Part shown: positions 34,696 through 63,125 of the stretch, piece after piece
Numbering within the stretch: position 1 is the stretch's first letter
How the letters are laid out: each line of letters opens with the position of its first letter
Assembly: GCA_964447605.1 (NCBI GenBank)
Contig: CAYUTA010000004.1
Span: 15,465-79,464 of the forward strand
Reading direction: 5' to 3'
DNA: 64,000 nucleotides
Origin: an uncultured Oscillospiraceae bacterium
GTDB lineage: Bacteria > Bacillota > Clostridia > Christensenellales > CAG-138
Position numbers and translations under genes: made by a program
The notes under the pieces: generated by a model
What the model was told of the DNA's origin: nothing
The model's database searches: none
What the model saw: the letters and a program-made list of their open reading frames with translations, nothing else

Positions 34696-34715
34696 TGGCG
34701 GAGAGACTGGGATTC
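34696..34715. repeat. distal att-like direct repeat (copy of the tRNA-Ser 3' end)
   Basis: TGGCGGAGAGACTGGGATTC is identical to 45096-45115. The flanking bases differ on both sides. Confidence 0.85.
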
Positions 34716-35330: not shown

Positions 35331-35465
35331 ACCGTCACGGCACATCCACATTGCTAGTTTTTTAAGGTTCATCGCCGTGTATTTGAGTTTGACCCAGTTT
35401 GTGACCGCACGCAAGCCGCGGTGTTGCGTGTATTGCATACCGTATTTGGGGCATCGATGAAGTTT
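35331..35465 (-). pseudogene. C-terminal fragment of an IS1182/IS5-type DDE transposase
   Basis: KYGMQYTQHRGLRAVTNWVKLKYTAMNLKKLAMW matches the conserved C-terminal block (..HGMRYTQYRGL..V....L.FAAMNLKKLA.W) of IS1182-family transposases. No upstream catalytic domain is present. Confidence 0.6.
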
Positions 35466-35558
35466 TACTGAATGATACCGAGGGTTTTCTTGATTCTGCC
35501 CAGTGTTCTTGCATGGGAGCATACTTTTCAGCAGGGCGTGCTAACAGCTTCGATCCAT

Positions 35559-38881: not shown

Positions 38882-38886
38882 ATATC

Positions 38887-40146: not shown

Positions 40147-40165
40147 TTCTTATCCTCCAAAATGC

Positions 40166-40993: not shown

Positions 40994-40994
40994 C

Positions 40995-41912: not shown

Positions 41913-41956
41913 GCCTGCCGCTCCCCTGAAACTCGGTAGCTTATTAGGTGTTAGCG

Positions 41957-45095: not shown

Positions 45096-45115
45096 TGGCG
45101 GAGAGACTGGGATTC
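45096..45115. repeat. proximal att-like direct repeat (3' end of tRNA-Ser)
   Basis: Identical 20 nt to 34696-34715. Confidence 0.85.
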
Positions 45116-45183
45116 GAACCCAGGGTCCCGTCAGGGACACGGCATTTCGAGTGCCGCACGATCGACCACTCTGACATCTCTCC
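45096..45183 (-). tRNA. tRNA-Ser (anticodon CGA)
   Basis: The minus strand reads GGAGAGATGTCAGAGTGGTCGA..GCGGCACTCGAAATGCCGTGTCCCTGACGGGACCCTGGGTTCGAATCCCAGTCTCTCCGCCA. It has a 7-bp acceptor stem, a long variable arm, a T-loop GGTTCGAATCC, anticodon loop CU-CGA-AA, and an encoded CCA. Confidence 0.9.
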
Positions 45184-46642: not shown

Positions 46643-47341
46643 CTATTCCGCGGCAGCACGCGGGCCGGATTCCCTGTAGAGCCGCCAGCCCATCAGGACA
46701 ACCCAGACATAGGCCAGGGTTTTGGGAATCATCAGCATACCCAAAAGCGGCACGGCCGAACCGAACAGCACAACCGGGATGTAGAAGCCGAACGACAGGA
46801 TGACGGCAAGCGGCATAAAGCGGAACACCGGGTCCCCGGCCTTTTTCGCCTCCTGCGCAAACAGGACGATGATCATGATTCCCATGATGGAAAACGGGAT
46901 ATTTCGCAGTATTCCGTAAAATAGCGGCTGCTGGTACGAAAGCCAGTCGTTTTGCGGAAGCAGGCAGAGCGCGACTCTGGCCGCCGTCAGAACCCACATC
47001 AAGACGGTCAGGTTTTTGCGTTGCGCAATGCCGTACCGTTCCCGCCAGATGTAGTAAAGGATCAGGTAAAAAACAGTCATGGTAACAGAGGTTATCAGCT
47101 TGCCGGCGCCGAGCGCGGCGGCGTTTGCCTCGAGCCCGGCCGTCCAAAGCGCATACATACGCGGCACGAGGTGGAAGGCGTCTCCCGCGCCGAGCAGCAC
47201 GGCCATAAGGCCGAATTTTTTAACAAGGGGATCGTGCTTCCCCCTTGCCATCATCAGGATGCCGGCGGTGATAACCCCGGTCAAATAACAGATGTCGAAA
47301 ATCGTTTCTACGAGCGCCTGTGCCATTGTCACAATCTCCAA
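46643..47341 (-). CDS. hypothetical 7-TM integral membrane protein
   Basis: Hydrophobic throughout with 7 predicted helices. It lies 5 nt downstream of the TetR gene and is probably co-transcribed. No family recognised. Confidence 0.65.
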   Translation of the reverse strand: MEIVTMAQALVETIFDICYLTGVITAGILMMARGKHDPLVKKFGLMAVLLGAGDAFHLVPRMYALWTAGLEANAAALGAGKLITSVTMTVFYLILYYIWRERYGIAQRKNLTVLMWVLTAARVALCLLPQNDWLSYQQPLFYGILRNIPFSIMGIMIIVLFAQEAKKAGDPVFRFMPLAVILSFGFYIPVVLFGSAVPLLGMLMIPKTLAYVWVVLMGWRLYRESGPRAAAE

Positions 47342-47346
47342 TCGGT

Positions 47347-47895
47347 TTAATATAGTGTCCGCTTCACAATCTCAATGAAAAAGCCTGCATCGGGAGCTCT
47401 CATACGAAGCGATATAAGAAGGTTTGAAAGTACGAACGCCGCATAGCGCTCTTTTGTGAAGCCGTCCGTCCAGATATCCGTACGGATGGCGGCATCCTGC
47501 TCCATGCGCTGTATGAGCGCGCTTCTCAAAACCTTCTGCATGGAGTACATACGCTCCTGGCCGACGGCTTCCACATTTCTAAGGCTGTCCATGAGCATAC
47601 CGGCGGAGCTGAATATGCGGCCGCTCAAAAAATGATAAATTTCCCCAAGCTGGTCGCAGAATGAACCGCCGCCGATTGCTTCCCGCATCTCTACAAGTGT
47701 TTTTTTCCAATATTCTTCCGTAAGGGCGAGCAGGATTTCATCTTTGCCGGAAAAGTAATTGTAAACCGTCCCCTGTGCAATACCGGCCTTTTTCGCAATT
47801 GCCCGTATACTGATTGCTTCCGGCCCTTCCGCTCCGGCAATCTCCCGGGCCATGTCCAGCAAAGTGCCGCGGAGCGTTTCATCCTTTCTTTTCAT
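47347..47895 (-). CDS. TetR/AcrR family transcriptional regulator
   Basis: HTH ISIRAIAKKAGIAQGTVYNYFSGKDEIL. ATG 47895 follows GAGGGGAGGGG. Confidence 0.9.
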   Translation of the reverse strand: MKRKDETLRGTLLDMAREIAGAEGPEAISIRAIAKKAGIAQGTVYNYFSGKDEILLALTEEYWKKTLVEMREAIGGGSFCDQLGEIYHFLSGRIFSSAGMLMDSLRNVEAVGQERMYSMQKVLRSALIQRMEQDAAIRTDIWTDGFTKERYAAFVLSNLLISLRMRAPDAGFFIEIVKRTLY

Positions 47896-47920
47896 CCGGC
47901 CCCTCCCCTCGAAACCTTCA

Positions 47921-47940
47921 TAAATGAACGCGTTCATTTA
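47921..47940. promoter_or_regulatory. operator O1: perfect 20-bp palindrome TAAATGAACGCGTTCATTTA
   Basis: Lies 1-2 nt downstream of the -10 box of the tetR promoter and covers the predicted transcription start site. Confidence 0.7.
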
Positions 47941-47941
47941 T

Positions 47942-47969
47942 AGTATAGCTGCTTTTTTTGTTTTGTCAA
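47942..47969 (-). promoter_or_regulatory. sigma-70-type promoter of the tetR-membrane protein operon (TTGACA-16-TATACT)
   Basis: The minus strand reads TTGACA AAACAAAAAAAGCAGC TATACT. Confidence 0.6.
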
Positions 47970-47972
47970 CAA

Positions 47973-47994
47973 TTAAATGAACGCGTTCATTTAA
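47973..47994. promoter_or_regulatory. operator O2: perfect 22-bp palindrome TTAAATGAACGCGTTCATTTAA
   Basis: Second copy of the same palindrome, 3 nt upstream of the -35 box. Confidence 0.7.
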
Positions 47995-48204
47995 AAACCA
48001 TGTCTGAGCGGCGGGCAAAATTCGCATCCTGTGTGCAACGGAGGGCGTCACCGCTGACGGCACGAAGCGGCTGGACCCTATTCAACGGAATTTTTCCCGC
48101 CATTTGAAATGCCCGGTATATGCTTTTGACGCCATGCGGAGGCTGCTGTTGCGGCTTTTGCCAACAGGTTCATCTGTAAACTTCGAAAAAACTAAAATTG
48201 GTTC

Positions 48205-48233
48205 TTGCAATATAATTTCAAACTGATTATAAT
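48205..48233 (+). promoter_or_regulatory. sigma-70-type promoter TTGCAA-17-TATAAT of the BMP-ABC cluster
   Basis: -35 at 48205-48210, a 17-nt spacer, and -10 at 48228-48233, in an AT-rich tract. Confidence 0.55.
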
Positions 48234-48236
48234 ATC

Positions 48237-48254
48237 ATCATATTATAATATGAT
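48237..48254. promoter_or_regulatory. perfect 18-bp palindrome ATCATATTATAATATGAT (candidate operator)
   Basis: Starts 4 nt after the -10 box and overlaps the predicted transcription start site. Confidence 0.5.
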
Positions 48255-48330
48255 AATAAGTTTCCGGCCCCATTCATTCGATTTGAGCCGTTGCGCTCAA
48301 ACAAACAATACCAAATCAGGAGGAGCACAC

Positions 48331-49437
48331 ATGAAAAAGAGATGGTCGGTATCGCTGATGGTCTGGATTCTTGTTACATCGCTGTTGATTGGCTGCGCAC
48401 AGCAGCCGGCCCGGCAGGGCGCCGCGACGGACGTACCGCAGCCGGTTCCTTCCGGGGCGGCAGCGCCGGCCGAACGGAAAAAGCTGGTTGTGATCAGCAA
48501 CCGCAGCTTTGGCGACAAGGGCCCTATCGATAGTCAGGCAGCGGTTCTGCCTGAGCTCGAGGCGCTCGGGGTTGAGACCAAAACGCTGGAGTCGCTCTCC
48601 GCGGACGTATTTGAAGAGGATATTCGTGCAATGGCAAACGCCGGATATGACATCATCGCAACGTCCTTCCCGCCGGTATCGGAGGCCGTGGTTTCCGTTG
48701 CAAAGGATTTCCCGGATACCGCCTTTATCAGCATCTATCAATTCAGCAACGCCGGCGAAACCAGGTACGACAATATCTGGTCGACCGAATATAAAACACA
48801 GGAGATGCTCTATGCGCTTGGCTGCCTTGAAGCAAAGCTGACCAGAACCAATAAGGTCGGCTTTATCAGCGGACAGGAAACTGCAAGCTCCAACTCCGGC
48901 ATCAACGGCTTTATGGATGGCGTCATAGCCACAAACCCGGACTGCGAGGTTGAATATATGTATGCCGGCACGTATGACGACCCGACCGTTGGAAAAGAAA
49001 TTGCGCTGGCAATGATCAGCCGCGGCGTTGACTGTATCATAACCGCCGCGGGCAAAACCAGCACGGGCGCGATCGAGGCGTGTCAGGAAAAGGGCGTGTT
49101 TATCGTTGCGGACAACGGCGACTTTTTTGATCTTGGTCCGAATGCGATGGTCACCTACTTTCTTACCGATTTCGGCCAGGTGGTGAAGCAGGGCGTTTCG
49201 GATTATATAAACGGAGAATTCAAGGGCGGCGAACACACCATTATGTCCGTATTTAATGGCGGAGCAGTTGTAAAATGGGACGCTTCCGAACGCTTTAACG
49301 AGCAGAATCCAGAGACCGCAGAGCTTGTGCGGGGAGCGATTGCATACGCAAAGGAGCAGGAAGCAAAGGTTATCTCCGGCGACCTCGTTGTCGAATTCAA
49401 ACCGGATACGCCCCGGGCAATCCGAAAGGGTTCATAA
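48331..49437 (+). CDS. BMP family (PnrA/Med-like) ABC transporter substrate-binding lipoprotein
   Basis: AGGAGG SD. Lipobox MKKRWSVSLMVWILVTSLLIGCAQ. Body with FGDKGPIDS, GFISGQE and a BMP-type fold pattern. The ORF-track extension to 48205 is AT-rich promoter DNA. Confidence 0.8.
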   Translation: MKKRWSVSLMVWILVTSLLIGCAQQPARQGAATDVPQPVPSGAAAPAERKKLVVISNRSFGDKGPIDSQAAVLPELEALGVETKTLESLSADVFEEDIRAMANAGYDIIATSFPPVSEAVVSVAKDFPDTAFISIYQFSNAGETRYDNIWSTEYKTQEMLYALGCLEAKLTRTNKVGFISGQETASSNSGINGFMDGVIATNPDCEVEYMYAGTYDDPTVGKEIALAMISRGVDCIITAAGKTSTGAIEACQEKGVFIVADNGDFFDLGPNAMVTYFLTDFGQVVKQGVSDYINGEFKGGEHTIMSVFNGGAVVKWDASERFNEQNPETAELVRGAIAYAKEQEAKVISGDLVVEFKPDTPRAIRKGS

Positions 49438-49439
49438 AA

Positions 49440-49826
49440 ATGAACGGGAACGTCTATACGCACGGGTTCCTTGTCGATGACCTGGATGCTGCAATCCGAT
49501 TTTATGAAAGCAAGCTTGGCTTTCGTGTCAAGCGACGCACGCAGACCTTTGCCGCGATGGAGACAAATGCGCCGTCCGGCCTGTTCTTCTGGCAATATGC
49601 GCACATTTTTGAGCATCTTGGCCAAGAAGCCGCCGGGAAGGTGCGGCACAGGCAGATGATCGCCATGCTGTATGAGACGAGGGAGCAGGTAGACGCGCGC
49701 GTAGAAGAGCTGCTCCTTGACGGTGTGGAGCTGGTTGCGGCCCCACAGGAATGGGCCTGGAATGCATATGCCGCCTACCTCGTGGATTGCAAGGGCTTTT
49801 TGTGGGAGTTATGGACATGGAATTGA
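49440..49826 (+). CDS. VOC (glyoxalase/bleomycin-resistance/dioxygenase) family protein
   Basis: THGFLVDDLDAAIRFYESKLGFRV is a typical VOC beta-alpha-beta-beta-beta N-terminal module. 128 aa. Confidence 0.8.
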   Translation: MNGNVYTHGFLVDDLDAAIRFYESKLGFRVKRRTQTFAAMETNAPSGLFFWQYAHIFEHLGQEAAGKVRHRQMIAMLYETREQVDARVEELLLDGVELVAAPQEWAWNAYAAYLVDCKGFLWELWTWN

Positions 49827-49837
49827 TGGAGAGGAAC

Positions 49838-50230
49838 ATGATCCGGTATAACCATACCGCGTACGGTCTGCTCGTTGATGACATTGCAGAAGCGGTTGCG
49901 TTCTATCGCGATACGATGGGCTTCCATGTGCTGCGTCAGTCGGATACCTTCGCGCAGATGGATGCGGGCGGCACGTTGGCGTTCTTTCTTTGGAAATGGT
50001 CGCATCTTTGCGAGCATCTCGGCCGGGAGGCCATGCAAAAGGTGCGGCATCGCACGCAGTCTGCATTGCGCTTTGAACGGCCGGACGATGTCGACCGCGC
50101 CTATCTTGCGCTGAAAGAGCAGGGCGTAAACTTTGTGGCCGCGCCGGGCAACTGGGAATGGAATGCACGCGCCGCATATTTCGTTGACGACAACGGATAC
50201 ATGTGGGAATTGTTCTGCTGGCTCAAATAA
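49838..50230 (+). CDS. VOC family protein (tandem paralogue)
   Basis: MIRYNHTAYGLLVDDIAEAVAFYRDTMGFHV aligns residue-for-residue with the preceding gene, and both end ..WELxxW. Start 49838 (GGAGAGG SD) was chosen by alignment with the paralogue. Confidence 0.75.
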   Translation: MIRYNHTAYGLLVDDIAEAVAFYRDTMGFHVLRQSDTFAQMDAGGTLAFFLWKWSHLCEHLGREAMQKVRHRTQSALRFERPDDVDRAYLALKEQGVNFVAAPGNWEWNARAAYFVDDNGYMWELFCWLK

Positions 50231-50300
50231 AGGATCAATGCGCCTGCTTGCCGTCAATCAGGCGGCAGGCGGGCGTGTAAGGAAGGGGTCGAAGGGTAGC

Positions 50301-51827
50301 ATGGAAAACGCGCTTTCAATGCGGCATATTGTGAAAACGTTCCCCGGTGTTGTTGCCAATAACGACGTCTCGCTGCATGTCGAACGGCGGAGCATACATG
50401 CGCTGGTCGGCGAAAACGGCGCGGGGAAAAGTACTCTGATGAATATCCTCTGCGGTCTTGTCGGGGCTGACGAAGGCAGCATCCTGCTCAATGGGAAAGA
50501 GACGGCGATCCGTTCAACCTTTGATGCGATCAAGCAGGGTGTCGGCATGGTGCATCAGCATTTCATGCTCGTACCGGATATCACGGTCCTTGACAATATT
50601 CTGCTTGGCGCGGATACGCCTAAAAAAGCGGGTTTAACGGACTATCGGCAGGGACGCAGGGCGGTTGGACAAATCATGGATCAATATGCCTTTCATGTTG
50701 ATCTCGACCGCAAGATCTATGAGCTTTCGGTCGGTGAAATGCAGCGGGTAGAGATCATCAAATCCCTTTATCGCGGTGCGGAGATTCTGATTTTGGACGA
50801 GCCCACCGCGGTGCTGACGCCGAATGAAATCCGGCAGCTGTTTGACGCAATGCGCAGCTTTGTCGCGCGGGGCAAAACGATATTGTTCATTTCGCATAAG
50901 CTCAGGGAAGTGCTCGAAATTTCCGACGAGATTACCGTTATGCGCCAGGGCAGGGTGACGGGAAACGTAAAAACCCGCGAGGTCGATGAAATCATGCTTG
51001 CCACGATGATGGTAGGGCGTGACGTGGTATTGCGTGTGCATAAGGGGAAGGCTGCCCCCGGCGGGGAAGCGCTCCGGCTTGACCGGTTTTTTGCAAACAA
51101 TGACAGAAGGCTGCCCGCGGTCAGGGACGTGTCCTTCTCGGTTCGACGGGGCGAAATTGTCGGCATTGCCGGCGTCGACGGCAACGGGCAGACGGAGCTT
51201 GTCGAGGCGCTCTGCGGCATGCGCAGGCAAACGGGCGGCCGCGTTTATCTCAACGGGAAGGACATCACCCATTGCGGCGGGCTCGAACGACGCAGGCGTG
51301 GTATCGCGCATATTCCGGCCGACCGCATGGTATTTGGCGTCAACAAAACCTGCAGTGTGGAGGAAAACCTGATTCTATCGGTTTACAACATCAAGCCCTA
51401 TTGCCGGCTGGGCTTCATGCTTTGGCGGAAGCTGCGCGCGTTTTCAGAACGGTTGGCACGCCGTTTTCACATCGTTGCGGCTTCGATTGAGACGCATGTC
51501 GGCAATATGTCCGGCGGCAATATGCAAAAGGTGGTCGTTGCCCGGGAAATGTCGGCCGAGCCGGATATTTTGATTGCGGCGCAGCCGACGCGCGGCGTTG
51601 ACGTCGGCGCGATTGAATTCATTCACAACGAAATCATTGGCCTGAGAGATAAAAACAAGGGCGTCTTGCTGGTTTCGATGGAGCTCGATGAGATATTATC
51701 GCTTTCCGACCGGGTTCTGGTGCTCTATGAGGGCGAAATTGTGGCCGAGTTTGAAAATGAAAACCTGAACGAGCTTGAGATCGGACTTTACATGACCGGC
51801 GCAAAGAGGATGGAGCGATCGATATGA
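50301..51827 (+). CDS. ABC transporter ATP-binding protein, duplicated ATPase (sugar/nucleoside CUT2-type)
   Basis: Two ABC cassettes: [27 protein letters not shown], and a second with [14 protein letters not shown]. Typical partner of BMP-type SBPs. Confidence 0.9.
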
Positions 51828-52948
51828 AGGACAGGATGAAAACAGCCTGGTTCGAAAAAGCCAGGCGCAATGGCCGGCTGGTCGGAAGACAGGCATTGAT
51901 AGTGCTGACCGCGCTGCTGGCTGCAACGATACTGGTGATCGTGTTCGGGTTTGAGTGGGATTCCGTTTTGCAGGGAATCCGGGGCGCTGTTGTCAACGAC
52001 GTCAACGGTACGCTCAGATGGTTTACGCCGCTGCTGCTGACGGGGTTATCCTGCGCGCTTGCATTCCGCGGCGGCATATGGAACATGGGGGTGGACGGAC
52101 AGCTTTACATGGGCGCCATTGCCGCAACCGCGGTCGCCATCCGGTGTGCCGCGCTTTCCCCCGGGCCGCTGCTTGCGCTGGTTTTCCTTGCCGGCATGGC
52201 GGCGGGGGCGCTGTGGGCGGGGATCGCCGGCTTGCTGCGCGTGTATTGCGGGGCCAAAGAGGTTGTGACCACCATTCTGCTCAACTACATCGCATTCCAT
52301 TTTACCGATTATATGGTGCTTGGCCCGCTCAAGGGTTCCGGCGGATATGCGGTTGCGGAGTCGAGCGACATGATCGGCGAGCAGATCTGGCTTACGAAAC
52401 TGATTCAAGGCTCAACGGTTACAACGGGCCTGATCATTGCGTTTGTCTCGGTGGTCGTAGTTTATGTTTTGACAACCAACACACCGTTTGGCTATGAAAA
52501 CAGGATGCTCGGCACCAATCGCGCGTTTGCAAACTACGGCGGAATCAACGTCAGGCGTACGTTTATGGCTACGATTCTGATCAGCGGAGCAATTGCGGGG
52601 CTTGCGGGCGTAATTGAGATTCTCGGCGTGCATCACCGCTTCCCGATTCGCTTTTCGAACAACCTTGGCTTTGACGGAATCGTCGTATCGATTCTGGCAA
52701 ACGACAGCGCGATTGGCGTTCCGCTGAGCGCGTTCTTCTTTGCGGTGCTGCGCAACGGCTCCTATAACATCGAGCGGCTTTCAGACGTACCAAAGTCCCT
52801 GGTGCTTGTCGTGCAGGCCATGGTCATATTGATGGTTGGCGCAAGGTTTGCAATGCCGGAGTTAAAACGGAAGGATATCATCAAAAAGATCAGGCGCGGA
52901 CTCCACTTTGGCGAGCCGGCGGGAGGTTCCAATGAACGACTTGTTTAA
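51824..52948 (+). CDS. ABC transporter permease (BMP/CUT2-type)
   Basis: About 9-10 TM helices. WNMGVDGQLYMGAIAA is typical of this permease family. Shows a 4-nt overlap with the ATPase gene. Confidence 0.85.
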   Translation: MKDRMKTAWFEKARRNGRLVGRQALIVLTALLAATILVIVFGFEWDSVLQGIRGAVVNDVNGTLRWFTPLLLTGLSCALAFRGGIWNMGVDGQLYMGAIAATAVAIRCAALSPGPLLALVFLAGMAAGALWAGIAGLLRVYCGAKEVVTTILLNYIAFHFTDYMVLGPLKGSGGYAVAESSDMIGEQIWLTKLIQGSTVTTGLIIAFVSVVVVYVLTTNTPFGYENRMLGTNRAFANYGGINVRRTFMATILISGAIAGLAGVIEILGVHHRFPIRFSNNLGFDGIVVSILANDSAIGVPLSAFFFAVLRNGSYNIERLSDVPKSLVLVVQAMVILMVGARFAMPELKRKDIIKKIRRGLHFGEPAGGSNERLV

Positions 52949-53855
52949 TGCTGAAACGATTGCCGCGACATTGCGCATGACCACGCCGCTGATATTGGTG
53001 GCGCTGGGCGGCCTCATGTGCCAGCGCGCGGCGATATTCAATATCGGCCTGGAAGGCTATATGCTGATGGGCGCGTTCTGCTCGATTTTATTTATCAACA
53101 TTTCGGGCAGCAGCCTTGCGGGGTTAATCGGCGGAATTCTCGGCAGCGTTCTGCTGAGCCTCGTGTATGCGTTGTTTGTTATAAAATTCAAAGCCAACCA
53201 TATCCTTACGTCCATTTCGGTCAACTATGTTGCAACAGGGCTGACAAGCTTTTTGCTGATGCCGTTATTCGGTGTGAAGGGAAGTTTTCGCCCAACCAAT
53301 ATGCAAGCGCTTCCGACGGTGAACATACCGTTTCTTGAGGAAGGGAGCTTTCTTGACATCGCGTTCAACAATCACACGGTGACGGTGTATGTTGCGCTGG
53401 CGCTGATTGCGGTGGTGTACGTGCTGCTGTTTCAAACGCCGTTTGGCCTGCGCGTCCGCAGCGTTGGCGGCAATGAAAACGCAGTCCGTACCGCGGGCGT
53501 CAGGCCGGAAACCATAAAGCTGCTGGTAATTATCTGGGCCGGCGTGCTCTGCGGCGTTGCCGGCGCCCATCTGTCAACGGGGTATGCGTCGGAGTTTACC
53601 GAGAGCATCACACAGGGGCGCGGCTTCACAGCCTTCTCCGCGATTGTATTCGGCGGGGCGCATCCTGTGTTCAGTTCGCTTGCGTGTTTGCTGTTCGGCC
53701 TTGCCGACGCGGTTGGTATCCGTCTGGAATTGGCCAATATGGGCGTGCCGGCCGGCGTGATCAAAATGTTCCCGTATGCGCTGGCCTGCATCGCGGTGGC
53801 AGTGAGCTCGCTGGTGCAGCTCAAGAAGAGGACGTCGTCGAAAGAGCTGTTTTAG
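52932..53855 (+). CDS. ABC transporter permease (BMP/CUT2-type)
   Basis: GGGAGG SD. TTPLILVALGGLMCQRAAIFNIGLEGYML is typical of the second permease. Confidence 0.85.
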   Translation: MNDLFNAETIAATLRMTTPLILVALGGLMCQRAAIFNIGLEGYMLMGAFCSILFINISGSSLAGLIGGILGSVLLSLVYALFVIKFKANHILTSISVNYVATGLTSFLLMPLFGVKGSFRPTNMQALPTVNIPFLEEGSFLDIAFNNHTVTVYVALALIAVVYVLLFQTPFGLRVRSVGGNENAVRTAGVRPETIKLLVIIWAGVLCGVAGAHLSTGYASEFTESITQGRGFTAFSAIVFGGAHPVFSSLACLLFGLADAVGIRLELANMGVPAGVIKMFPYALACIAVAVSSLVQLKKRTSSKELF

Positions 53856-53888
53856 CGGCAATCTTGATACGGGAAGGAAGCAAACCAA

Positions 53889-55112
53889 ATGAAACTGAGA
53901 AAATATTTTAGAACGGAAACCTATTATGTCAGCCCTGCAAACTATGCAAACGAGGTGTTTGACCAGTACAAGCTGCCCCGCAAGGTGGAACTGCACGATT
54001 CCACCCTGCGCGATGGCGAACAGCAGGCAGGCGTCGCGTTTTCCAAAGCGGATAAGATCAAGATTGCCGAACTGCTTGCAGAGGCCGGCATCCATCGCAT
54101 TGAGGCCGGCATGCCCGCGGTTTCCAAATCGGATCAGGAGGCCATACAGGCCATTGTGAAAAGCAATTTCGGGCCGAAAATATTTGCATTTTCCCGCGCT
54201 GTGGAATCCGATATCCGGCTTGCCGCCGACCTCGGCGCGGACGGCGTTGTTGTCGAGATCCCCGTCAATGAAGAGTTGATCCGCTTCGGGTATTGCTGGC
54301 CGAAGGACAGGGCGGTCGATGCCGTGGTTTCCGCGACAAGGCTTGCGCATGCGCTTGGGATGCAGGTCGATCTGTTTTTGATGGATTCCTCCCGCCTTGC
54401 GAGCGATGATTTTGTAGCGCGCGTGCAAAAAATCAAGGAAGAAGGCTGGGTTGATTCGTGCAGCCTCGTCGATACGCAGGGCGTACTGTCCACCTCGGCG
54501 ACGCGTTTCCTCGTAAAGAACGCCGTTGAGAAGCTGCGCGTTCCGATCGAGGCACATTGTCACAACGATCTTGGTCTTGCGGTTGCAAACTCGCTGGCCG
54601 CCTTTGAAGCGGGCGCTTCGGCCATCCATACCACGGTGCTCGGCATTGGGCCGCGTGCGGGACAGGCCGCGACGGAGCAGGTCGCCCTTGCGCTTCGCCT
54701 GCTGTACGGCGCGGATATCGGCGTCAACCTGGAGAAATTGTATAGCCTCGGCCGGTCCGTGGGTGAAATTTCCAGATTTCAGTATCCGGTCAATCAGCCC
54801 ATTGTTGGCGATGTGTTGTATACGATTGAATCCGGCATGCCGGCGTCCTGGTGGCAAAACATTAAAAAGGAGCATCCGCTCGCGCTTTACGGCATCCTGC
54901 CACAGGCGGTGGCCCGTCCCGAAATCGAGATTGCGCTCGGCAAGAGCAGCGGGAACGCCTCCATCCGGTTCTGGCTTGAAAAGCGGAATCTGACGTTGAA
55001 AAACGATGAAAGCGTTGCGGAGATTCTTCAGAAGGTCAAGGAGAAGGCGACGGAGAAGAAGGGCGTTTTAAGCGAGCGGGAATTTCTTGCGATCATAGAG
55101 CCTTACGTATAG
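53889..55112 (+). CDS. DRE-TIM metallolyase (HMGL-like; short 2-isopropylmalate/homocitrate/citramalate synthase family)
   Basis: LHDSTLRDGEQ, RIEAG, and the metal site EAHCHNDLGLAVANSLAAFEAGASAIHTTVLGIG. It has 407 aa and lacks the LeuA regulatory domain. Confidence 0.8.
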   Translation: MKLRKYFRTETYYVSPANYANEVFDQYKLPRKVELHDSTLRDGEQQAGVAFSKADKIKIAELLAEAGIHRIEAGMPAVSKSDQEAIQAIVKSNFGPKIFAFSRAVESDIRLAADLGADGVVVEIPVNEELIRFGYCWPKDRAVDAVVSATRLAHALGMQVDLFLMDSSRLASDDFVARVQKIKEEGWVDSCSLVDTQGVLSTSATRFLVKNAVEKLRVPIEAHCHNDLGLAVANSLAAFEAGASAIHTTVLGIGPRAGQAATEQVALALRLLYGADIGVNLEKLYSLGRSVGEISRFQYPVNQPIVGDVLYTIESGMPASWWQNIKKEHPLALYGILPQAVARPEIEIALGKSSGNASIRFWLEKRNLTLKNDESVAEILQKVKEKATEKKGVLSEREFLAIIEPYV

Positions 55113-55115
55113 GGA

Positions 55116-56306
55116 GTGAAACGCATGAAGCAGGCATGGTTGAAGAATCGATATGCAATCGTCGGCGTGGGCATGACGCCGCAGGGGAAGGTTCCCGGCA
55201 GAAGCGCCGCGAGCTTTCATGTGGAGGCATGCATCAACGCTATGCAAGATGCCGGCCTTGGCAGGGACGCGATTGACGGCTTGCTGCTCTACCGGCACTT
55301 CGCCCCGCTCGACGGCGATATCGATACGACTGCATTTACGGTTGCGGAGCAGCTCGGCATGCGCCCAACGGCGCTGAGTCAGGAGGCGTATTGTACAAGA
55401 ACGTGGCTAACGCATGCCGTCGGGCTGCTCGAAACCGGGGTATGCAACTATGTGCTGGTATCCTATGGAGACAATGGGCGGTCATTCAGGCGCGCGTTTG
55501 TCAATGAACTGGATCACGGCAGGCCGACCGACGAGCTGGCTGCATACGGCGATTTTTCGACCATGGCCAAGTATGCCATGATCGCGCGTTCAGCCATGCA
55601 CGCTTATGGAACCGGCCCGCATATCTGGCGCAATATTGCCGTGGCCCAGCGCGCGTTTGCCAATTTAAACGAGCGTGCGTCGATGTATGGCAAGGCGCTT
55701 TCCAATCAAGACTATGATGCGTCGCCTTATATCGTCGAGCCGTTCCGCCTGCTGGATGCAACGCCCGTAACAGACGGCGGAAGGGCGCTCCTCCTCACCA
55801 CAATGGAGCGGGCGCGTGACCTGCGCTCCAGGCCGGTTGCGCTGCTTGGGTTCGGGCAGGCCAACATGCCGGCCGCACCAAGCCGCATGACGTTTGAGGA
55901 CTCGCAATATGCGGCAAAAACCGCCTGCATGGCCGCGCTTTCCATGTCCGGCATTTCCCTTGAGGAGATCGATTGCTGCGAGATTTACGACTGCTTTACC
56001 TACACGGTGGAGGCAACGCTGCGTGATTACGGGTTTTTCAAACCGGATGAAGCGGAAGCGTTTTTGTCGGCGGCGCGCATTGGCCCCGGCGGCGCGCTGC
56101 CGGTCAACACCTCGGGCGGCATGCTGTCGGAAGGTTACTTTATGGGGTTGACGCCGGTAACCGAAGCGGTGCTGCAGCTGCGCGGCGCATGCGGCGCACG
56201 CCAGCTTGGCACGCTGCCGGGCACAAAAAAGCCAGAACGGATTCTTTGCAGTGACAATGGCGGCGTTTTCCAAAGCCACTGCACGATTGTACTTGGAGGG
56301 ACGTGA
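55116..56306 (+). CDS. thiolase-like protein (SCP-x/DUF35-partner type) with non-canonical active-site residues
   Basis: SCP-x-type thiolase layout (YAIVGVGMTP; NTSGG; QLRG..G.RQ). It reads EIYDCF where SCP-x thiolases have HDCF, and SEGYFMG where thiolases have GHP. Cys93 sits at the nucleophile position but in CTRT rather than CASG. An alternative start is ATG 55125. Confidence 0.75.
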   Translation: MKRMKQAWLKNRYAIVGVGMTPQGKVPGRSAASFHVEACINAMQDAGLGRDAIDGLLLYRHFAPLDGDIDTTAFTVAEQLGMRPTALSQEAYCTRTWLTHAVGLLETGVCNYVLVSYGDNGRSFRRAFVNELDHGRPTDELAAYGDFSTMAKYAMIARSAMHAYGTGPHIWRNIAVAQRAFANLNERASMYGKALSNQDYDASPYIVEPFRLLDATPVTDGGRALLLTTMERARDLRSRPVALLGFGQANMPAAPSRMTFEDSQYAAKTACMAALSMSGISLEEIDCCEIYDCFTYTVEATLRDYGFFKPDEAEAFLSAARIGPGGALPVNTSGGMLSEGYFMGLTPVTEAVLQLRGACGARQLGTLPGTKKPERILCSDNGGVFQSHCTIVLGGT

Positions 56307-56731
56307 CCATGGGAGAGCGTGCGTATTCCCGTCTTTTGCAGAAATTTCCGCCGGAAGCGGAGCCGTTCAAAGAAGGGCTTCAACAAAAGCGTCTGCTGAT
56401 TATGCAGTGCGGCGACTGCGGCGCATTTCGCCTGCCGCACGGCATCGCCTGCCCGCAGTGCGGCGGCATGGCCTATCGCTGGAAAAAGGTGACCGGCGCG
56501 GGGGAGGTGGATTCGTTTGTGATATTCCACCGCGCGTTCCACCCTGGAGCCGGACCGACGCCGCCCTATGTAGTGGCGAGAATACGGCTGAAGGAAAACA
56601 TCTTCTTTTTGGCAAACATTGTGGGGCTTGCGCCGGATATGGTATACTGTGGACAGAAAGTTACGCTACATTGGGAAGCAAACGGCGAATGTGGATACTT
56701 GCCGCAATTTCGGCCCGCGGCAGCCCAGTAA
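56303..56731 (+). CDS. DUF35 OB-fold/zinc-ribbon protein (thiolase partner)
   Basis: Rubredoxin-like CGDCG..CPQCG followed by an OB-fold (GEVDSFVIFHRAFHPG). Shows a 4-nt overlap with the thiolase-like gene. Confidence 0.85.
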   Translation: MTMGERAYSRLLQKFPPEAEPFKEGLQQKRLLIMQCGDCGAFRLPHGIACPQCGGMAYRWKKVTGAGEVDSFVIFHRAFHPGAGPTPPYVVARIRLKENIFFLANIVGLAPDMVYCGQKVTLHWEANGECGYLPQFRPAAAQ

Positions 56732-56753
56732 CGATTGATAAAGGAGATGTGCC

Positions 56754-57428
56754 ATGGCATTGCTTGCTGAAAACAAAGCGATTCTTTCGGAGCAGATTGT
56801 ACAAAAAATCATTGATGAGATTAAATGCGGCAATCTCAGGCCCGGTGAAAAGCTGCCGACGGAAAAGCAGCTTGTCGATTTGTTTCAGGTAAGCAGAATC
56901 ACGGTCCGCGAGGCGCTGCGTACGCTGAAGGTCATGAACATCATCGATATCAAGCAGGGCAAAGGCGCGTTTATAACATCAACCGACGTAAACCTTTTGA
57001 TCGATCAGCTGGATTTCGTATTCCTGCTGGAGAAAACCACCATTTCCCAATTGTTTGAGGCGAGGCGCGCGCTGGAACCGCAGATTGCCGCCATTGCGGC
57101 GGCGCGTATCACAGACGAAGAGGTTGCCGAAATGCGCGTCATGAGCCAACAGGATGGATATGATATTCTTCTCCATCAGAAAATCGCCGAGTGTACGAAA
57201 AACCCCGTGCTTGTGCGGTTTGTGTCCAGCATCTGGAGCATGGGCGAGATCAGCCGCCAGATGACGTCCAAAATTCCGGGTGTGAAAACGGTTGCATATT
57301 CACAACATGCGGCGCTGATTGAAGCATTGGCCGCCCATGACGGCAATCAGGCGCGGGCATTGATGTCAAAGCATCTGGAATTTGTTGAGAATACCTATCG
57401 AATGAATAATCCGGGAACAGAAAATTAG
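56754..57428 (+). CDS. GntR family transcriptional regulator, FadR/FCD subfamily
   Basis: wHTH LRPGEKLPTEKQLVDLFQVSRITVREALRTL plus an all-helical FCD domain (LFEARRALEPQIAAIAA). Confidence 0.9.
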   Translation: MALLAENKAILSEQIVQKIIDEIKCGNLRPGEKLPTEKQLVDLFQVSRITVREALRTLKVMNIIDIKQGKGAFITSTDVNLLIDQLDFVFLLEKTTISQLFEARRALEPQIAAIAAARITDEEVAEMRVMSQQDGYDILLHQKIAECTKNPVLVRFVSSIWSMGEISRQMTSKIPGVKTVAYSQHAALIEALAAHDGNQARALMSKHLEFVENTYRMNNPGTEN

Positions 57429-57769
57429 CCGCAGCAAACATACCGCCTGTGAGCCTGCGCCGAAAACCGGCTCCGGCGGCAAACCGCACGGGAAAACCGC
57501 CCCAATTGGGCGATTCGCTTGGGCGAATAAATCGCCGGAGCCGGAATCGGCCGGTTCAGCGCTTTTGGGCGGCTTCGATCTGCCCGGTTTGCTGCACCAT
57601 CCCGGATCCGCTTCGCCGGACTGCCGAATGTATGCTTGCCTTTGTACGGGTGTGGGCGCTTCGTGCGGGGGTATTCTGAGGCGGTCAATCGCGCGGGAAC
57701 CGACGGATCCGTCGCGTTTGCGGCCGGCCCCCTTTCCCCGCCGCTCCCGGCTTATAAGAACCGCAGGAG

Positions 57770-58903
57770 CTATCGGCACATGCCGGCTGAAAGCAGGCGG
57801 CCGCGCACATACACGGATTTGATATCCAAAGCAGCATCCAGCAATACAAGATCAGCCGGAAAGCCCGTCTGAATGAACCCGCGCTCTGCATCCAGCCGCG
57901 TTGCCCGCGCCGGATTGTGCGTTGCGGCAGCGACCGCAGTCTCGAGCGGAACCCCGAACCGTACGGCGTTTTTCAGCGCATCGTGCACGGTGATAACCGA
58001 GCCCGCGAGCGTATCGGAGCCGCACAGCGTGCAGCGGCCGTTTTGGAGCGTAATCGGCTGGCCGCCGAGCTCGTATGCGCCGTCCGGCATGCCCGCGCAG
58101 CGCAGCGAATCGCTAATCAGCACAATGCGCTCCGGGAACAGCCGGAAAGCCGCGCGGACCGCAGATGGATGCACATGCAGCCCATCGCAAATCAGCTCCG
58201 CATAGGCGCCTGCATCCATACCCGCGCCGATGGGGCCGGGCGCGCGGTGCGCGAGGCCGTTCATGCCGTTATAAAGGTGCGTAAGCTCCGTTGCGCCCGC
58301 GGCAAAGCCGGCGGCCGCAGCGTCATAGCCTGCGGCGGTGTGTCCGACGGCGACGGTGCAGCGCGCTGCTGCGGCGTGCTTGATAAACGGAATCGCGTTC
58401 GGCTCTTCGGGCGCGACGGTCACCATACGCACCCGGTTGCCGGAAGCCGTGTTGACCCGGTCGAAAAAGGCGGCGTCCGGCGCATGCAGATCGTCCGCGA
58501 ACTGTGCGCCCCGCTTGGCGTAGGAGAGGAACGGTCCCTCCATGAACATGCCAGCGCAATCGGCCATTCCGGGTTCGGGCGCAAACGCGGCGATGGCTTC
58601 CGCCGCGGCACAGAGCGTATTGAGCGGCAGCGTCATGGTTGTGGCAAGAAAGCTCGTTACGCCATGCGCGGCATAGTGACGCGCCATCTTCGGCAGATCG
58701 TCCGCCACGCCGTCGCTGAAATCACAGCCTATCGCGCCGTGTGTATGCACGTCGATAAGGCCCGGCAGAAGATATTGCCCGGCCGCATCAATGCCGTCTT
58801 CATCCGGAAAATGTCCGATCTGCGTGATGAAATCGGTGAAACGCACGTCATATTTTACAAAATGTCCGTCCGGCAAAAATACGTTCGCGTGTTTAATCAG
58901 CAT
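57770..58903 (-). CDS. nagA: N-acetylglucosamine-6-phosphate deacetylase
   Basis: AAGGAGG SD. LLPGLIDVHTHG, VTVAPE, VAVGHTAA, THLYNGM, ELICDGLHVHP and VLISDS are canonical NagA motifs. Confidence 0.9.
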   Translation of the reverse strand: MLIKHANVFLPDGHFVKYDVRFTDFITQIGHFPDEDGIDAAGQYLLPGLIDVHTHGAIGCDFSDGVADDLPKMARHYAAHGVTSFLATTMTLPLNTLCAAAEAIAAFAPEPGMADCAGMFMEGPFLSYAKRGAQFADDLHAPDAAFFDRVNTASGNRVRMVTVAPEEPNAIPFIKHAAAARCTVAVGHTAAGYDAAAAGFAAGATELTHLYNGMNGLAHRAPGPIGAGMDAGAYAELICDGLHVHPSAVRAAFRLFPERIVLISDSLRCAGMPDGAYELGGQPITLQNGRCTLCGSDTLAGSVITVHDALKNAVRFGVPLETAVAAATHNPARATRLDAERGFIQTGFPADLVLLDAALDIKSVYVRGRLLSAGMCR

Positions 58904-58916
58904 GGAAAGGCCCTCC

Positions 58917-60290
58917 TTACAGCATTGGCAAGCTGGCCGCCGCAACCGACTGGCCGACCCGACGCGATTTTTCGTCCGGCAGATGCAGCGTAATCTGTTC
59001 GGCAACTACGGGGTATTCTTCGCGGAGCACGCGCAGCGCGTGCTCGACGAGCGTTTCGCCGCCCTTGCCAGAGAGCACGCGGCCAAGCAGCAAAACGTTT
59101 GCAAAACCGTACAGCGCGCGGTAGAACGGAAGCGTATGCGCCAGGTATACGCCGATATCGGCAAATACCTGTAGGGCGCGGGCGTCGCCGGTATCGGCAA
59201 GCTGCTGCACGATTTTGAGCTTTTCTGCGGGGGACGCCGCCCCTGCCAACGGAATACCCGCGACATTTGCAAGCTTCACCACGCCGTCCTGCGAAAAGTA
59301 CTTGCAGCCGACGCCGATATCACCCGACCACTCGTCCATCATGGCGGCCGGGTTGAAATCCACGGGCGCGAATGCGAGCTCGTTGAGCCAGCCGGTGATA
59401 TTGCCCTGCGCGTCCACGAAGCCCACGGCCTCGCTCGTCCCCATCGCAATGCCGAGCACATTGTTTGCGCCCAGGCTCATCGCGCCGGCAAGGGCGGTCA
59501 CGTCGCCGTCGTTGCAGACGGTCACGGGCACGTCGCCAATCTCCCTGGCAGCGCGCAGATAGATATCCTTGACCTGCTCATTGAACGCCTTTTCGGGCAC
59601 CTGGAGGAACAGCGACGCGACCATCGTGCGGTTATTGATGAATACGCCCGCGCTCGAAACGCCGATGGCGTCCACGCGCGGCATGTGGCTTGCGGCGGTC
59701 TTGAACGCGGACACGATGCCGTCGTAATGATACTGCGGGTCGGCGTTCGTTTTCGGGTGCCAAACGACCTCCTCGGCGTAGACGGGTTCGCCGTCGATTA
59801 CGGCGCTGACCTTGCGATCGGAACCGCCCGCGTCAAATCCAATGCGGCAACCGTCGAGATGCCGCCCCACAGGCAGAGACGCATCCTGCTCGGCGGGCAG
59901 CTTGTCCACGCGCACGACGGTCAGCGGCCGCTCGAACACGCGGGTCATGAAGTGGTAATCAAAGGCGCGTTCGCCGTCGGGCGCGTATGCGTGGATGAGC
60001 CGGTTGCACAGCGCCTCGTCTCCGCACAGCTCGATGCGGTAGCCGCCCTTCATCCAAAGCATGGCTTTGACGAGCCGGTCAAGATAGACGGCGTCCGCTC
60101 CGCGCATCTCCGACGCACCGTGAATATGCGTATTTACAACCGCTGTATGCGCATCCCCGCGGACAAGCGCTATGCCGAAAGGAACCGTCGCCGTTTTTTC
60201 AAACGCCTCGTTGAAGGCTTGTACCGGCATGAACGCCGGATCATAAACGGGAACGTTCTTGATATCAAATGGAATATTCAAATAATTCAT
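58917..60290 (-). CDS. divergent ROK-like (ASKHA) sugar kinase with ~165-aa N-terminal extension
   Basis: Phosphate-1-like motif RIGFDAGGSDRKV, plus VCNDGDVTALAGA and LGIAMGTSEAVGFV. No CxCGxxGC zinc motif or EIGH is present. Sits between nagA and the esterase gene in the sialate cluster. Confidence 0.65.
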   Translation of the reverse strand: MNYLNIPFDIKNVPVYDPAFMPVQAFNEAFEKTATVPFGIALVRGDAHTAVVNTHIHGASEMRGADAVYLDRLVKAMLWMKGGYRIELCGDEALCNRLIHAYAPDGERAFDYHFMTRVFERPLTVVRVDKLPAEQDASLPVGRHLDGCRIGFDAGGSDRKVSAVIDGEPVYAEEVVWHPKTNADPQYHYDGIVSAFKTAASHMPRVDAIGVSSAGVFINNRTMVASLFLQVPEKAFNEQVKDIYLRAAREIGDVPVTVCNDGDVTALAGAMSLGANNVLGIAMGTSEAVGFVDAQGNITGWLNELAFAPVDFNPAAMMDEWSGDIGVGCKYFSQDGVVKLANVAGIPLAGAASPAEKLKIVQQLADTGDARALQVFADIGVYLAHTLPFYRALYGFANVLLLGRVLSGKGGETLVEHALRVLREEYPVVAEQITLHLPDEKSRRVGQSVAAASLPML

Positions 60291-60320
60291 GGTTGCACCG
60301 TCCTTTCTTCGCGCTTCGGC

Positions 60321-60965
60321 TTAAACTGGGGTCTTGTGTATGCAGGCGCAGATGGCGGCGGCCAGCGCGGCGTGACCGGCGTGATTGAGGTGCACGCCGT
60401 CCTCGTCGCCTGCCTGCACGATGGACGCGGCGTCCAGAAAACCGCAGTGGAGCGTCTCCGCAACATGCCGGCAGACAGGGGCAAGCGCATGTGACCTTGC
60501 GACTGCGCCCATTCCGTAGGAATCCAAAAAAGGTGCGTTTTGCAGCGATTCCCGGATATGTGGCGGAGCGATAATCAGAATCTTCAGCGCACGTCCATCC
60601 GTTTCGGAGATGTACGTCCGCGCCGTTTTGACCAGCAGCCCCATGCCGAGGCCGATATCCGATACAGGCACGCCAAAACGGAGCTTCAGGTCGTTTGTTC
60701 CGAGCATGAGTATGAGCATGTCCAACGGGCGCGTCCGTTCGAGCGCCGGAAGCAGCAGCGCCTTGCCGTTGCGATCGTCGGCCGTGGGGTCGTCGAATAC
60801 CGTCGTGCGGCTGTTCATGCCGTCCTCAAACACCTGGTAGCCGGAACCCAATAATTGCTGCAGGCGCCCCGTCCAGCGCACGCTGAACGGATATCGGCCG
60901 CCTTCGGGGCTGGCCCTGTAGCCCCATGTGTTGGAATCGCCATAGCAAAGGATTGTTTTCATCAT
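60321..60965 (-). CDS. SGNH/GDSL hydrolase family esterase (candidate sialate O-acetylesterase)
   Basis: Block I ILCYGDSNTWGY, block III GTND, and a C-terminal D..H (DGVHLNHAGH). The role is inferred from context. Confidence 0.75.
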   Translation of the reverse strand: MMKTILCYGDSNTWGYRASPEGGRYPFSVRWTGRLQQLLGSGYQVFEDGMNSRTTVFDDPTADDRNGKALLLPALERTRPLDMLILMLGTNDLKLRFGVPVSDIGLGMGLLVKTARTYISETDGRALKILIIAPPHIRESLQNAPFLDSYGMGAVARSHALAPVCRHVAETLHCGFLDAASIVQAGDEDGVHLNHAGHAALAAAICACIHKTPV

Positions 60966-60973
60966 TCGTCCTA

Positions 60974-61825: not shown

Positions 61826-61844
61826 GTGGGAGGCCCCCGTTTTG

Positions 61845-63050: not shown

Positions 63051-63125
63051 CGTTCCTCCTATGAAAAGGACGCCCACCTGTACCTCTCCTATTGTACAAG
63101 ACAGACGCCTTTTCTTCAACCACTT

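Follow-up and report, generated by a model that had tools for sequence, protein, structure and literature searches.

Gene content and organisation

The DNA analysed here, called the window throughout, is a stretch of 64,000 nucleotides (nt) from an uncultured Oscillospiraceae bacterium (contig CAYUTA010000004.1, positions 15,465 to 79,464). Our analysis concerns a cluster of genes at positions 48331-57428 of the window that encodes an ABC importer with a BMP/PnrA-family substrate-binding lipoprotein (SBP), two VOC proteins, a DRE-TIM metallolyase, a thiolase-fold (thiolase-like) protein with a DUF35 partner and a GntR-family regulator. Gene families were assigned by Pfam, named subfamilies were judged with NCBIfam models and their curated cut-offs, and the nearest structures were taken from the PDB.

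As a first-pass annotation of this DNA had described, the cluster consists of ten co-directional and tightly packed genes, all on the + strand, with intergenic distances of -17 to +70 nt (Table 1). Every family name given in that annotation was confirmed by Pfam, which finds Bmp, two Glyoxalase domains, two ABC_tran domains in one chain, two BPD_transp_2 domains, HMGL-like, Thiolase_C_1, zf-ChsH2 with OB_ChsH2_C, and GntR with FCD. The regulator thus has both the winged helix and the FCD domain expected of the FadR type that had been proposed. The annotation also spoke of several 4-nt overlaps; the tight packing stands but the count does not, as two clear ones are present (ATPase/permease 1 and thiolase-like/DUF35). 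A purine-rich Shine-Dalgarno-like stretch lies ahead of most starts. The start of VOC2 was picked by homology, the open reading frame (ORF) itself opening at 49751, and its ATG is preceded by GGAGAGGAA, which resembles a ribosome-binding site. For the thiolase-like gene, an in-frame GTG at 55116 would give a protein of 396 amino acids (aa) and a gap of 3 nt, and the residue numbers used below for this protein refer to the 396-aa ORF.

Table 1 Positions of the genes and candidate control elements of the cluster in the window, and of the thiolase-like/DUF35/CoA-disulfide reductase (CoADR) trio on other contigs (L-numbers denote contig loci carrying homologues).
Feature	Position	Strand	Remarks
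Sigma-70-like promoter candidate, TTGCAA-17 nt-TATAAT	48205..48233	+	10/12 matches; consensus match only
AT-rich palindrome TATCATCATATTATAATATGATAATA, candidate GntR/FCD operator	48233..48258		26 nt; 15-nt arms, 93% complementary
BMP/PnrA-family substrate-binding lipoprotein (SBP)	48331..49437	+	368 aa; PF02608 Bmp, E 2e-44
VOC1 (glyoxalase/bleomycin-resistance fold)	49440..49826	+	128 aa; PF00903, E 2e-12; gap 2 nt
VOC2	49838..50230	+	130 aa; PF00903, E 9e-18; gap 11 nt
CUT2-type ABC ATPase, two fused ABC domains	50301..51827	+	508 aa; two PF00005 stretches; gap 70 nt
ABC permease 1 (BPD_transp_2)	51824..52948	+	374 aa; PF02653, E 4e-42; 4-nt overlap with the ATPase stop codon
ABC permease 2 (BPD_transp_2)	52932..53855	+	307 aa; PF02653, E 6e-39; 17-nt overlap
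DRE-TIM metallolyase, divergent, IPMS/HCS lineage	53889..55112	+	407 aa; PF00682, E 7e-59; gap 33 nt
Thiolase-fold protein, SCP2/Ltp2/Sal lineage	55125..56306	+	393 aa; only PF22691 Thiolase_C_1 detected; gap 12 nt
Stand-alone DUF35 (zinc ribbon and OB fold)	56303..56731	+	142 aa; PF12172 and PF01796; 4-nt overlap with the thiolase-like gene
GntR-family regulator with FCD domain (FadR subfamily)	56754..57428	+	224 aa; PF00392, E 2e-20; PF07729, E 1.5e-20; gap 22 nt
Trio, L115	4174-11637
Trio, L116	4174-11637
Trio, L001	2095-15537
Trio, L003	10001-12949

Conservation of the gene set

Homologue searches with the thiolase-like and DRE-TIM proteins as queries led to syntenic contigs, and the comparison across genomes that the first-pass annotation had suggested shows the same genes recurring in six other lineages (L005-7, L008-10, L029, L030, L031-32 and L035), with 32-75% amino-acid identity per protein. 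L030 is an Anaerolineaceae genome, and the others are Clostridia or Clostridia-like. The gene order is constant, save that the VOC genes follow the permeases in L029 and that one lineage has a single VOC gene, and the regulator gene occupies the same position in all syntenic loci. DRE-TIM relatives of at least 55% identity were the only ones found within this cluster type, and a scan of species-representative genomes with the DRE-TIM protein returned just distant genes resembling isopropylmalate synthase (IPMS; 27-41% identity), the peptide patterns being too specific. Because the same gene set recurs in other lineages, the grouping is more than chance and, judged by sequence comparison, the cluster is a real, conserved ten-gene operon-like unit; the earlier proposal that a BMP/CUT2 importer is joined in one such unit to enzymes of C-C bond chemistry is borne out by this conservation.

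It is scarcely credible that a nucleoside importer merely happens to lie next to unrelated or housekeeping enzymes. Such an accident would fit the gaps of 70 nt between VOC2 and the ATPase gene and of 33 nt before the DRE-TIM gene, as well as the remoter DRE-TIM relatives (41-50% identity) that occur without a transporter or thiolase-like gene, but six or more other lineages, Anaerolineaceae among them, carry the set as well. Orthology to the housekeeping enzymes of leucine or lipid metabolism, which the first-pass annotation had named as the finding that would speak against its view, was also considered: no protein of the cluster reaches the NCBIfam cut-off of such an enzyme, and with scores lying far under these cut-offs a housekeeping leucine or lipid role was rejected.

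The loci of the relatives extend beyond the ten genes. A D-2-hydroxyacid dehydrogenase gene comes after the regulator gene in every relative, and in the Clostridia-like loci it is followed by a CoADR (457.5 bits, cut-off 458) and a non-acylating aldehyde dehydrogenase (ALDH) that is related to alpha-ketoglutarate semialdehyde dehydrogenase (471 bits, cut-off 770). L030 has an aldehyde:ferredoxin oxidoreductase (AFOR) instead of the ALDH and OsmC at the place of CoADR, while L035 carries two adjacent ORFs (238 and 266 aa) between the dehydrogenase and ALDH genes, which may represent a frameshifted CoADR. Rhodanese and thioredoxin genes lie beside the cluster in L008-L010. A tblastn search of the whole 64-kb window with the dehydrogenase, ALDH and CoADR gave zero matches, and the stretch behind the regulator gene carries no pseudogene remnants; the window copy is a shortened version of the locus. 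The clearest hint that an aldehyde is an intermediate of the pathway is that two unrelated aldehyde oxidisers, ALDH and AFOR, swap between relatives.

The DRE-TIM protein

The DRE-TIM protein scores 278.7 bits on the NCBIfam model for IPMS (cut-off 517), 277.8 on NifV (cut-off 462.9) and 273.1 on LEU1_arch (cut-off 484.75), all being about half of the respective cut-offs, and its nearest solved relative is homocitrate synthase (HCS) 6ktq. Its best sequence matches are thus the IPMS, HCS and citramalate synthase (CMS) enzymes (e.g. 6ktq and 3rmj), with which it shares a TIM barrel followed by a C-terminal subdomain of similar length, and the RDGEQ and HxH motifs, whose metal and 2-oxo-acid ligands (R41, D42, H223 and H225) are invariant in 121 sequences. 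It differs from these synthases in having no regulatory domain and a catabolic context, and in that Met165 and Pro318 stand at the positions of the Glu (fxxED) and His (HxxGxH) of 6ktq and of the isopropylmalate synthase 3rmj. The 120 homologues considered (46-74% identical) have Met, Ile or Val at position 165 and Pro or Val, rarely Leu or Ile, at position 318, and never Glu or His. In HCS, IPMS and CMS, this Glu/His pair deprotonates (enolises) acetyl-CoA, and, since the pair is absent from the DRE-TIM protein and its homologues, a role as a Claisen synthase is unlikely. The first-pass annotation had described a synthase-family enzyme with intact RDGEQ and HxH sites; the sites are indeed intact, but Met165 and Pro318 speak against a synthase function, and the protein is probably a lyase that arose by neofunctionalisation and has kept its binding of a 2-oxo acid.

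Dyad-less DRE-TIM proteins of the 'LeuA family' with 41-50% identity (L036-L114) are common in sediment, soil and bioreactor metagenomes, their loci being without a transporter or thiolase-like gene. In 26 of 79 of these loci, a neighbouring gene encodes an M24-family protein (top model DddP, 111 bits, cut-off 600), and other neighbours are 2-hydroxyacid dehydrogenases, GlcD-like FAD oxidases, and GlcF-like subunits or CCG-type Fe-S proteins. The 2-hydroxyacid dehydrogenase and GlcD/GlcF-like neighbours tie the DRE-TIM family to oxidised 2-hydroxy acids.

The thiolase-like protein and its DUF35 partner

The thiolase-like protein reaches an NCBIfam score of 226, the cut-off being 421. In the PDB, it scores 187 bits with 4u4e (uncharacterised), 127 with Ltp2 (6ok1_A) and 110 with CtSal (9myr_A), as compared to 107.5 and 77.5 bits with the true thiolases 7yvy and 6esq. 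The structures nearest to the DUF35 protein are the DUF35 of ChsH2 (6ok1_B, E 3e-22) and then that of Shy (9myr_B), and its CxxC...CxxC pattern is intact (CGDCG...CPQCG).

The catalytic residues have been described as the Tyr and Cys of YDCY in Sal and the Tyr of YDHF together with Tyr344 in Ltp2, with HDCF being found in SCP2 thiolases and YDCF in trypanosomal SLP, and Sal has Gly where the nucleophile Cys of thiolases sits (PMC12329534). In the cluster protein, Cys93 aligns with the nucleophile Cys of EAACASG in 6esq_A and 7yvy_A, Y291-D-C293-F is the Sal/SLP motif, and Tyr341 (in EGY) aligns with Tyr344 of Ltp2, such that the Sal Cys and the second Tyr of Ltp2 are both present at once. Cys93, Arg95, Y291, C293 and Y341 are invariant across 121 homologues that are at least 61% identical. 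While the thiolase nucleophile is thus retained, the His of HDCF/HDAF and that of GH(P) in 6esq and 7yvy are not, and because both are Tyr, the family does not pass as a thiolase. By these scores and residues, the thiolase-like/DUF35 pair is nearer to the steroid side-chain aldolases than to true thiolases.

Two kinds of known assembly can be compared with the pair. Ltp2-ChsH2 (6ok1) and Sal-Shy (9myr) likewise combine a thiolase fold with a zinc-ribbon/OB DUF35, and the catalytic Tyr of Ltp2 and Sal, the Cys of Sal and the second Tyr of Ltp2 correspond to the invariant Y291, C293 and Y341. The DUF35 of the cluster is, however, a free protein of 142 aa and is not fused to a MaoC hydratase as in ChsH2 and Shy, no steroid or beta-oxidation genes lie nearby (neither the flanks of the cluster in the window nor the syntenic loci hold a MaoC, acyl-CoA dehydrogenase or steroid gene), the thiolase-like protein keeps, unlike Sal, the nucleophile Cys with an adjacent invariant Arg, and its identity with Ltp2 and Sal is low (110-127 bits). 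The archaeal acetoacetyl-CoA thiolase/DUF35/HMG-CoA synthase complex (6esq) and the Streptococcus HMGS-ACAT-DUF35 assembly (PMC12960953) resemble the cluster in that a thiolase fold and a stand-alone DUF35 accompany a second C-C-bond enzyme. The adjacency, being like that of the thiolase-DUF35-HMG-CoA synthase complexes, suggests a three-protein complex, although the third protein here is an HMGL-like DRE-TIM barrel, the HMG-CoA synthase of the archaeal-type complex is absent and both thiolase His residues are Tyr. The archaeal complex and Ltp2-ChsH2 had been given as the only well-studied precedents; both are valid, but BbsAB, PhlABC, Sal-Shy, the Streptococcus assembly and the archaeal fatty-acid synthase complex are precedents as well.

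These findings bear on a condensing, biosynthetic or assimilatory route, for which the first-pass annotation had left room. In it, the DRE-TIM protein would be a 2-alkylmalate synthase, though a short one, and the thiolase/DUF35 pair would provide an acyl-CoA or lengthen it in the manner of the archaeal complex. The top profiles of the DRE-TIM protein (IPMS, NifV and LEU1_arch), Cys93 at the nucleophile position and the adjacency just mentioned are what one would expect from such a route. We nonetheless consider it very improbable, as the synthase Glu and His are missing in all 121 members of the DRE-TIM family, both thiolase His residues are replaced by Tyr, the scores lie far under the curated cut-offs, and the importer, FCD regulator and aldehyde-oxidising enzymes are accompanied by no isomerase or dehydrogenase of chain elongation.

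Importer, regulator and VOC proteins

The features of a BMP/PnrA-type ABC importer, namely a Bmp-fold lipoprotein, a fused double ABC ATPase of the CUT2 type and two BPD_transp_2 permeases, are all present in the cluster, which differs from known systems of this type in having two VOC genes between the SBP and ATPase genes and in being coupled to C-C lyases rather than to nucleoside enzymes. The signal peptide of the SBP closes with the lipobox LLIGC. Its nearest solved structures are 7x0r ('Lbp'), the basic membrane lipoproteins 3s99 and 9q1u, and the atrazine periplasmic binding protein 6pi5, all of which are distant (at most 78.5 bits), and its top NCBIfam match is 'putative B6 ABC transporter SBP', with 69.5 bits against a cut-off of 400. 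A literature search on 7x0r yielded no relevant paper. The first gene of the syntenic loci encodes a protein 40-70% identical to the SBP. For the ATPase, the top NCBIfam match is 'putative B6 ABC transporter ATP-binding protein' (449 bits, cut-off 670), followed by xylose, arabinose and ribose ATPases, and permease 2 is 70-71% identical to its counterparts in L005 and L008.

Known ligands of BMP-family proteins include nucleosides and purines. The nearest NCBIfam relatives of the regulator are NanR, LldR, PdhR, UxuR, ExuR and GlcC, all under their cut-offs, and these names point to pathways of hydroxy, oxo or sugar acids, which is the main reason for which we favour an organic acid over a nucleoside as the substrate.

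VOC1 and VOC2 are paralogues, and the top solved match for both is 4mym, a protein of uncharacterised function (E 2e-14 for VOC2); VOC2 is about 70% identical to the VOC protein of L005 and L008. In a comparison with the E. coli GloA reference (His/Glu/His/Glu), nine VOC proteins from clusters of this type keep only one His and the C-terminal Glu, i.e. two of the four metal ligands of glyoxalase I, and they are rich in Trp. Methylmalonyl-CoA epimerase matched with E 0.17. Glyoxalase I and epimerase were therefore both rejected as functions of the VOC proteins, and the earlier suggestion of an epimerase is unsupported; the proteins may bind or isomerise the substrate. In L031/L032, the sole VOC gene (6158-6355) was called as a fragment of 65 aa, and this lineage is the one found on most contigs (P0124, 141 contigs). 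The VOC proteins may thus be dispensable, unless the gene has decayed or was wrongly called in this lineage.

A thiolase-like/DUF35/CoADR trio in DHAP-shunt operons

The thiolase-like protein (62-65% identical to that of the window), DUF35 and CoADR recur as a trio outside the cluster (Table 1). In L115/L116, it forms part of an operon for the methylthioribose kinase MtnK (366 bits, cut-off 275) and the MTR-1-phosphate isomerase MtnA (325 bits, cut-off 271), which also encodes a class II aldolase, an acylating ALDH, Fe-ADH and a DeoR regulator. The same Pfam families are found beside the trio in L001/L002 (Subdoligranulum), an MFS transporter is among the genes of these operons, and in a Syntrophomonadaceae genome the trio stands alone. 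The gene set is that of the dihydroxyacetone phosphate (DHAP) shunt for methylthioribose/5-deoxyribose, which yields DHAP and an aldehyde (PMC12632272). A literature search for a link between the DHAP shunt and a thiolase/DUF35 pair found no paper. As the thiolase-like/DUF35 pair accompanies two unrelated routes that release an aldehyde, its distribution supports a reaction between an aldehyde and an acyl-CoA, as well as a lyase role for the DRE-TIM protein.

The operons with the trio also raise the question of whether the cluster serves the salvage or catabolism of a nucleoside-like or S-adenosylmethionine (SAM)-derived compound (a 5'-deoxynucleoside, a methylthio compound or another thioether), which would be imported by the BMP protein, with the thiolase-like/DUF35 pair (and CoADR in relatives) possibly processing a sulfur-bearing aldehyde or acyl-CoA by C-S cleavage. 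In line with this, the relatives with solved structures in the BMP family comprise basic membrane lipoproteins and a binder of a heterocycle (atrazine), two lineages (L001 and L115) have the trio within MtnK/MtnA/class II aldolase operons, the acylating ALDH beside the trio scores almost equally on the sulfoacetaldehyde dehydrogenase and AdhE models, and rhodanese and thioredoxin accompany the cluster in L008-L010. Such salvage is unlikely, as the cluster contains no nucleosidase, phosphorylase, kinase or isomerase, the regulator resembles sensors of organic acids, the window lacks CoADR and L030 has OsmC in its stead, and the C-S chemistry is pure speculation.

Scavenging or detoxification of a reactive carbonyl (an alpha-dicarbonyl or short aldehyde), either imported or formed internally, would instead assign the VOC proteins, ALDH or AFOR, CoADR or OsmC and the aldolase-like enzymes to its removal. 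It would account for the two VOC proteins kept in most lineages, for the CoADR or OsmC and the ALDH or AFOR of the extended cluster, and for the PF00756 esterase and Fe-ADH that adjoin the trio in L001. However, a dedicated high-affinity importer and a regulator of the substrate-responsive type point to the use of a nutrient, the VOC proteins keep only half of the glyoxalase I ligands and the window copy has none of the redox genes, such that we regard this explanation as decidedly unlikely.

Proposed pathway

We tentatively read the cluster as one catabolic operon under control of the GntR/FCD regulator, which would import a small polar compound and degrade it in two aldol-type C-C steps by way of an aldehyde, a reading to which we assign somewhat less than an even chance. 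Our best guess for the substrate is a hydroxy- or oxo-carboxylic acid. The compound would be taken up by the BMP-fold lipoprotein and the CUT2-type ABC system, the family assignment of which is observed. In relatives only, the D-2-hydroxyacid dehydrogenase, whose gene is absent from the window, would oxidise it to a 2-oxo acid. The DRE-TIM protein, which is taken as a lyase because the acetyl-CoA-enolising Glu/His pair is missing, would bind the 2-oxo acid via its Arg-Asp...His-x-His metal site and cleave it to an aldehyde and a shorter 2-oxo acid. This logic resembles that of DmpG/DmpF (BphI/BphJ), the 4-hydroxy-2-oxovalerate aldolase system, which serves as a working analogy only: in both, a DRE-TIM enzyme acting on a 2-oxo acid would deliver an aldehyde for CoA-linked chemistry by a partner, but the partner of DmpG is an acylating aldehyde dehydrogenase, while that in the cluster is the thiolase-fold/DUF35 pair. 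In the second step, this pair would make or break a C-C bond between the aldehyde and an acyl-CoA, using the Tyr-Asp-Cys-Phe motif and the additional Tyr, and the thiolase-fold protein may form a complex with the DRE-TIM protein. As judged from relatives, ALDH or AFOR would finally remove aldehyde, and CoADR would keep CoA reduced.

Several points that weigh against this catabolic reading need to be considered. The named ligands of the solved BMP-family relatives are heterocycles (as for the atrazine-binding protein), not organic acids. The cluster contains no CoA ligase or CoA transferase to supply a CoA thioester, and the ALDH of the full clusters is non-acylating. As the dehydrogenase, ALDH and CoADR are absent from the window, the pathway as drawn is incomplete here. 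The DRE-TIM sequence is nearer to the synthases than to the DmpG-type aldolases (279 as compared to 91 bits, the cut-off of the DmpG-type model being 229), and DmpG has the motif RDGxH where the DRE-TIM protein has RDGEQ. Finally, the invariance of Cys93-Thr-Arg95 suggests a chemistry that is either covalent, as in thiolases or PhlC, or carboxylate-directed, for which a pure Ltp2/Sal mechanism has no need.

A bolder and rather unlikely view is that the DRE-TIM, thiolase-fold and DUF35 proteins constitute a new three-protein C-C-cleaving machine with the architecture of the archaeal thiolase-DUF35-HMG-CoA synthase complex, in which a neofunctionalised 'synthase' barrel releases the aldehyde and a CoA-dependent thiolase-fold aldolase captures it directly, and that the thiolase-like/DUF35/CoADR trio is a widespread, hitherto unrecognised aldehyde/acyl-CoA module of anaerobes that also extends the DHAP shunt for methylthioribose/5-deoxyribose. 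The module would then perhaps recover carbon or sulfur from 2-(methylthio)acetaldehyde.

Relation to described systems and significance

Our literature search on this gene combination found no describing paper, which agrees with the earlier statement that no characterised pathway has it. In Desulfotomaculum arcticum, genes for an HMGL-like protein, DUF35 and an acetyl-CoA acetyltransferase lie close together in a cluster induced by acetone/butanone, although this is a much larger and different system (PMC8084838). What is new about the present cluster is the subfamilies, which belong to known folds, and the way in which they are arranged in a pathway; it is not a new kind of system.

If the proposed catabolic pathway is correct, functions would be gained for two large groups of mis-named proteins, namely the dyad-less 'LeuA family / pyruvate carboxyltransferase' proteins and the 'thiolase family / acetyl-CoA acetyltransferase' proteins with YDCF and the additional Tyr, and thiolase-fold aldolases would no longer be confined to the degradation of steroids but would also take part in the central metabolism of anaerobes from the gut and from digesters. 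A pathway of 10-13 genes, spread from Clostridia to Anaerolineaceae, would gain a substrate. The tie between the trio and the DHAP shunt offers, in addition, a testable clue to how strict anaerobes get rid of the aldehyde that arises from the salvage of SAM by-products.

Control elements and neighbouring genes

The promoter candidate in Table 1 is the top promoter-like site of the + strand within 47000-58500 and lies about 100 nt upstream of the SBP gene; by eye, TTGACA/TATAAT-like pairs are also present upstream of the SBP gene in L005, L008, L029 and L031. The palindrome at 48233..48258, which overlaps the promoter region, is a candidate operator for the GntR/FCD regulator. An element similar to ATCAACATATG is seen, again by eye, downstream of the -10 box in the same four loci. 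The operator-like motif has 10 matches in the window as compared to 4.7 expected at one mismatch, which is not statistically convincing. Terminator-like hairpins inside the cluster are at the level of shuffled sequence (17 found, 16.0 expected), and a riboswitch search found none upstream of the cluster.

On the 5' side, a TetR-family gene (47347-47937, - strand) diverges from the cluster and is not kept beside it in relatives. Copies of the palindrome AAATGAACGCGTTCATTT at about 47924-47944 and 47973-47994, which adjoin a strong promoter-like site of the - strand (11/12 matches), are probably the operator of the TetR-family gene itself. The cluster is preceded, at a distance of about 3 kb, by a tRNA gene (45099-45183, - strand; Rfam RF00005, 44.5 bits). 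On the 3' side, the cluster is met by a convergent amidohydrolase gene, the first of a set of - strand genes at 57770-63119 that encode the amidohydrolase, a 457-aa ORF without a Pfam match that overlaps the amidohydrolase gene by 89 nt, a GDSL hydrolase, an RpiR/SIS regulator and a GlcNAc 2-epimerase-family protein. It has the look of a distinct locus related to sugars, and relatives do not keep it beside the cluster.

Farther away in the window, a c-di-GMP-I riboswitch aptamer is found at 13133-13231 (+ strand; 51.3 bits, gathering score 35). The G+C content is 0.44-0.49 over 34001-42000 as compared to 0.53-0.63 elsewhere in the window, and this segment, which contains several long ORFs on the - strand, may have been horizontally acquired.

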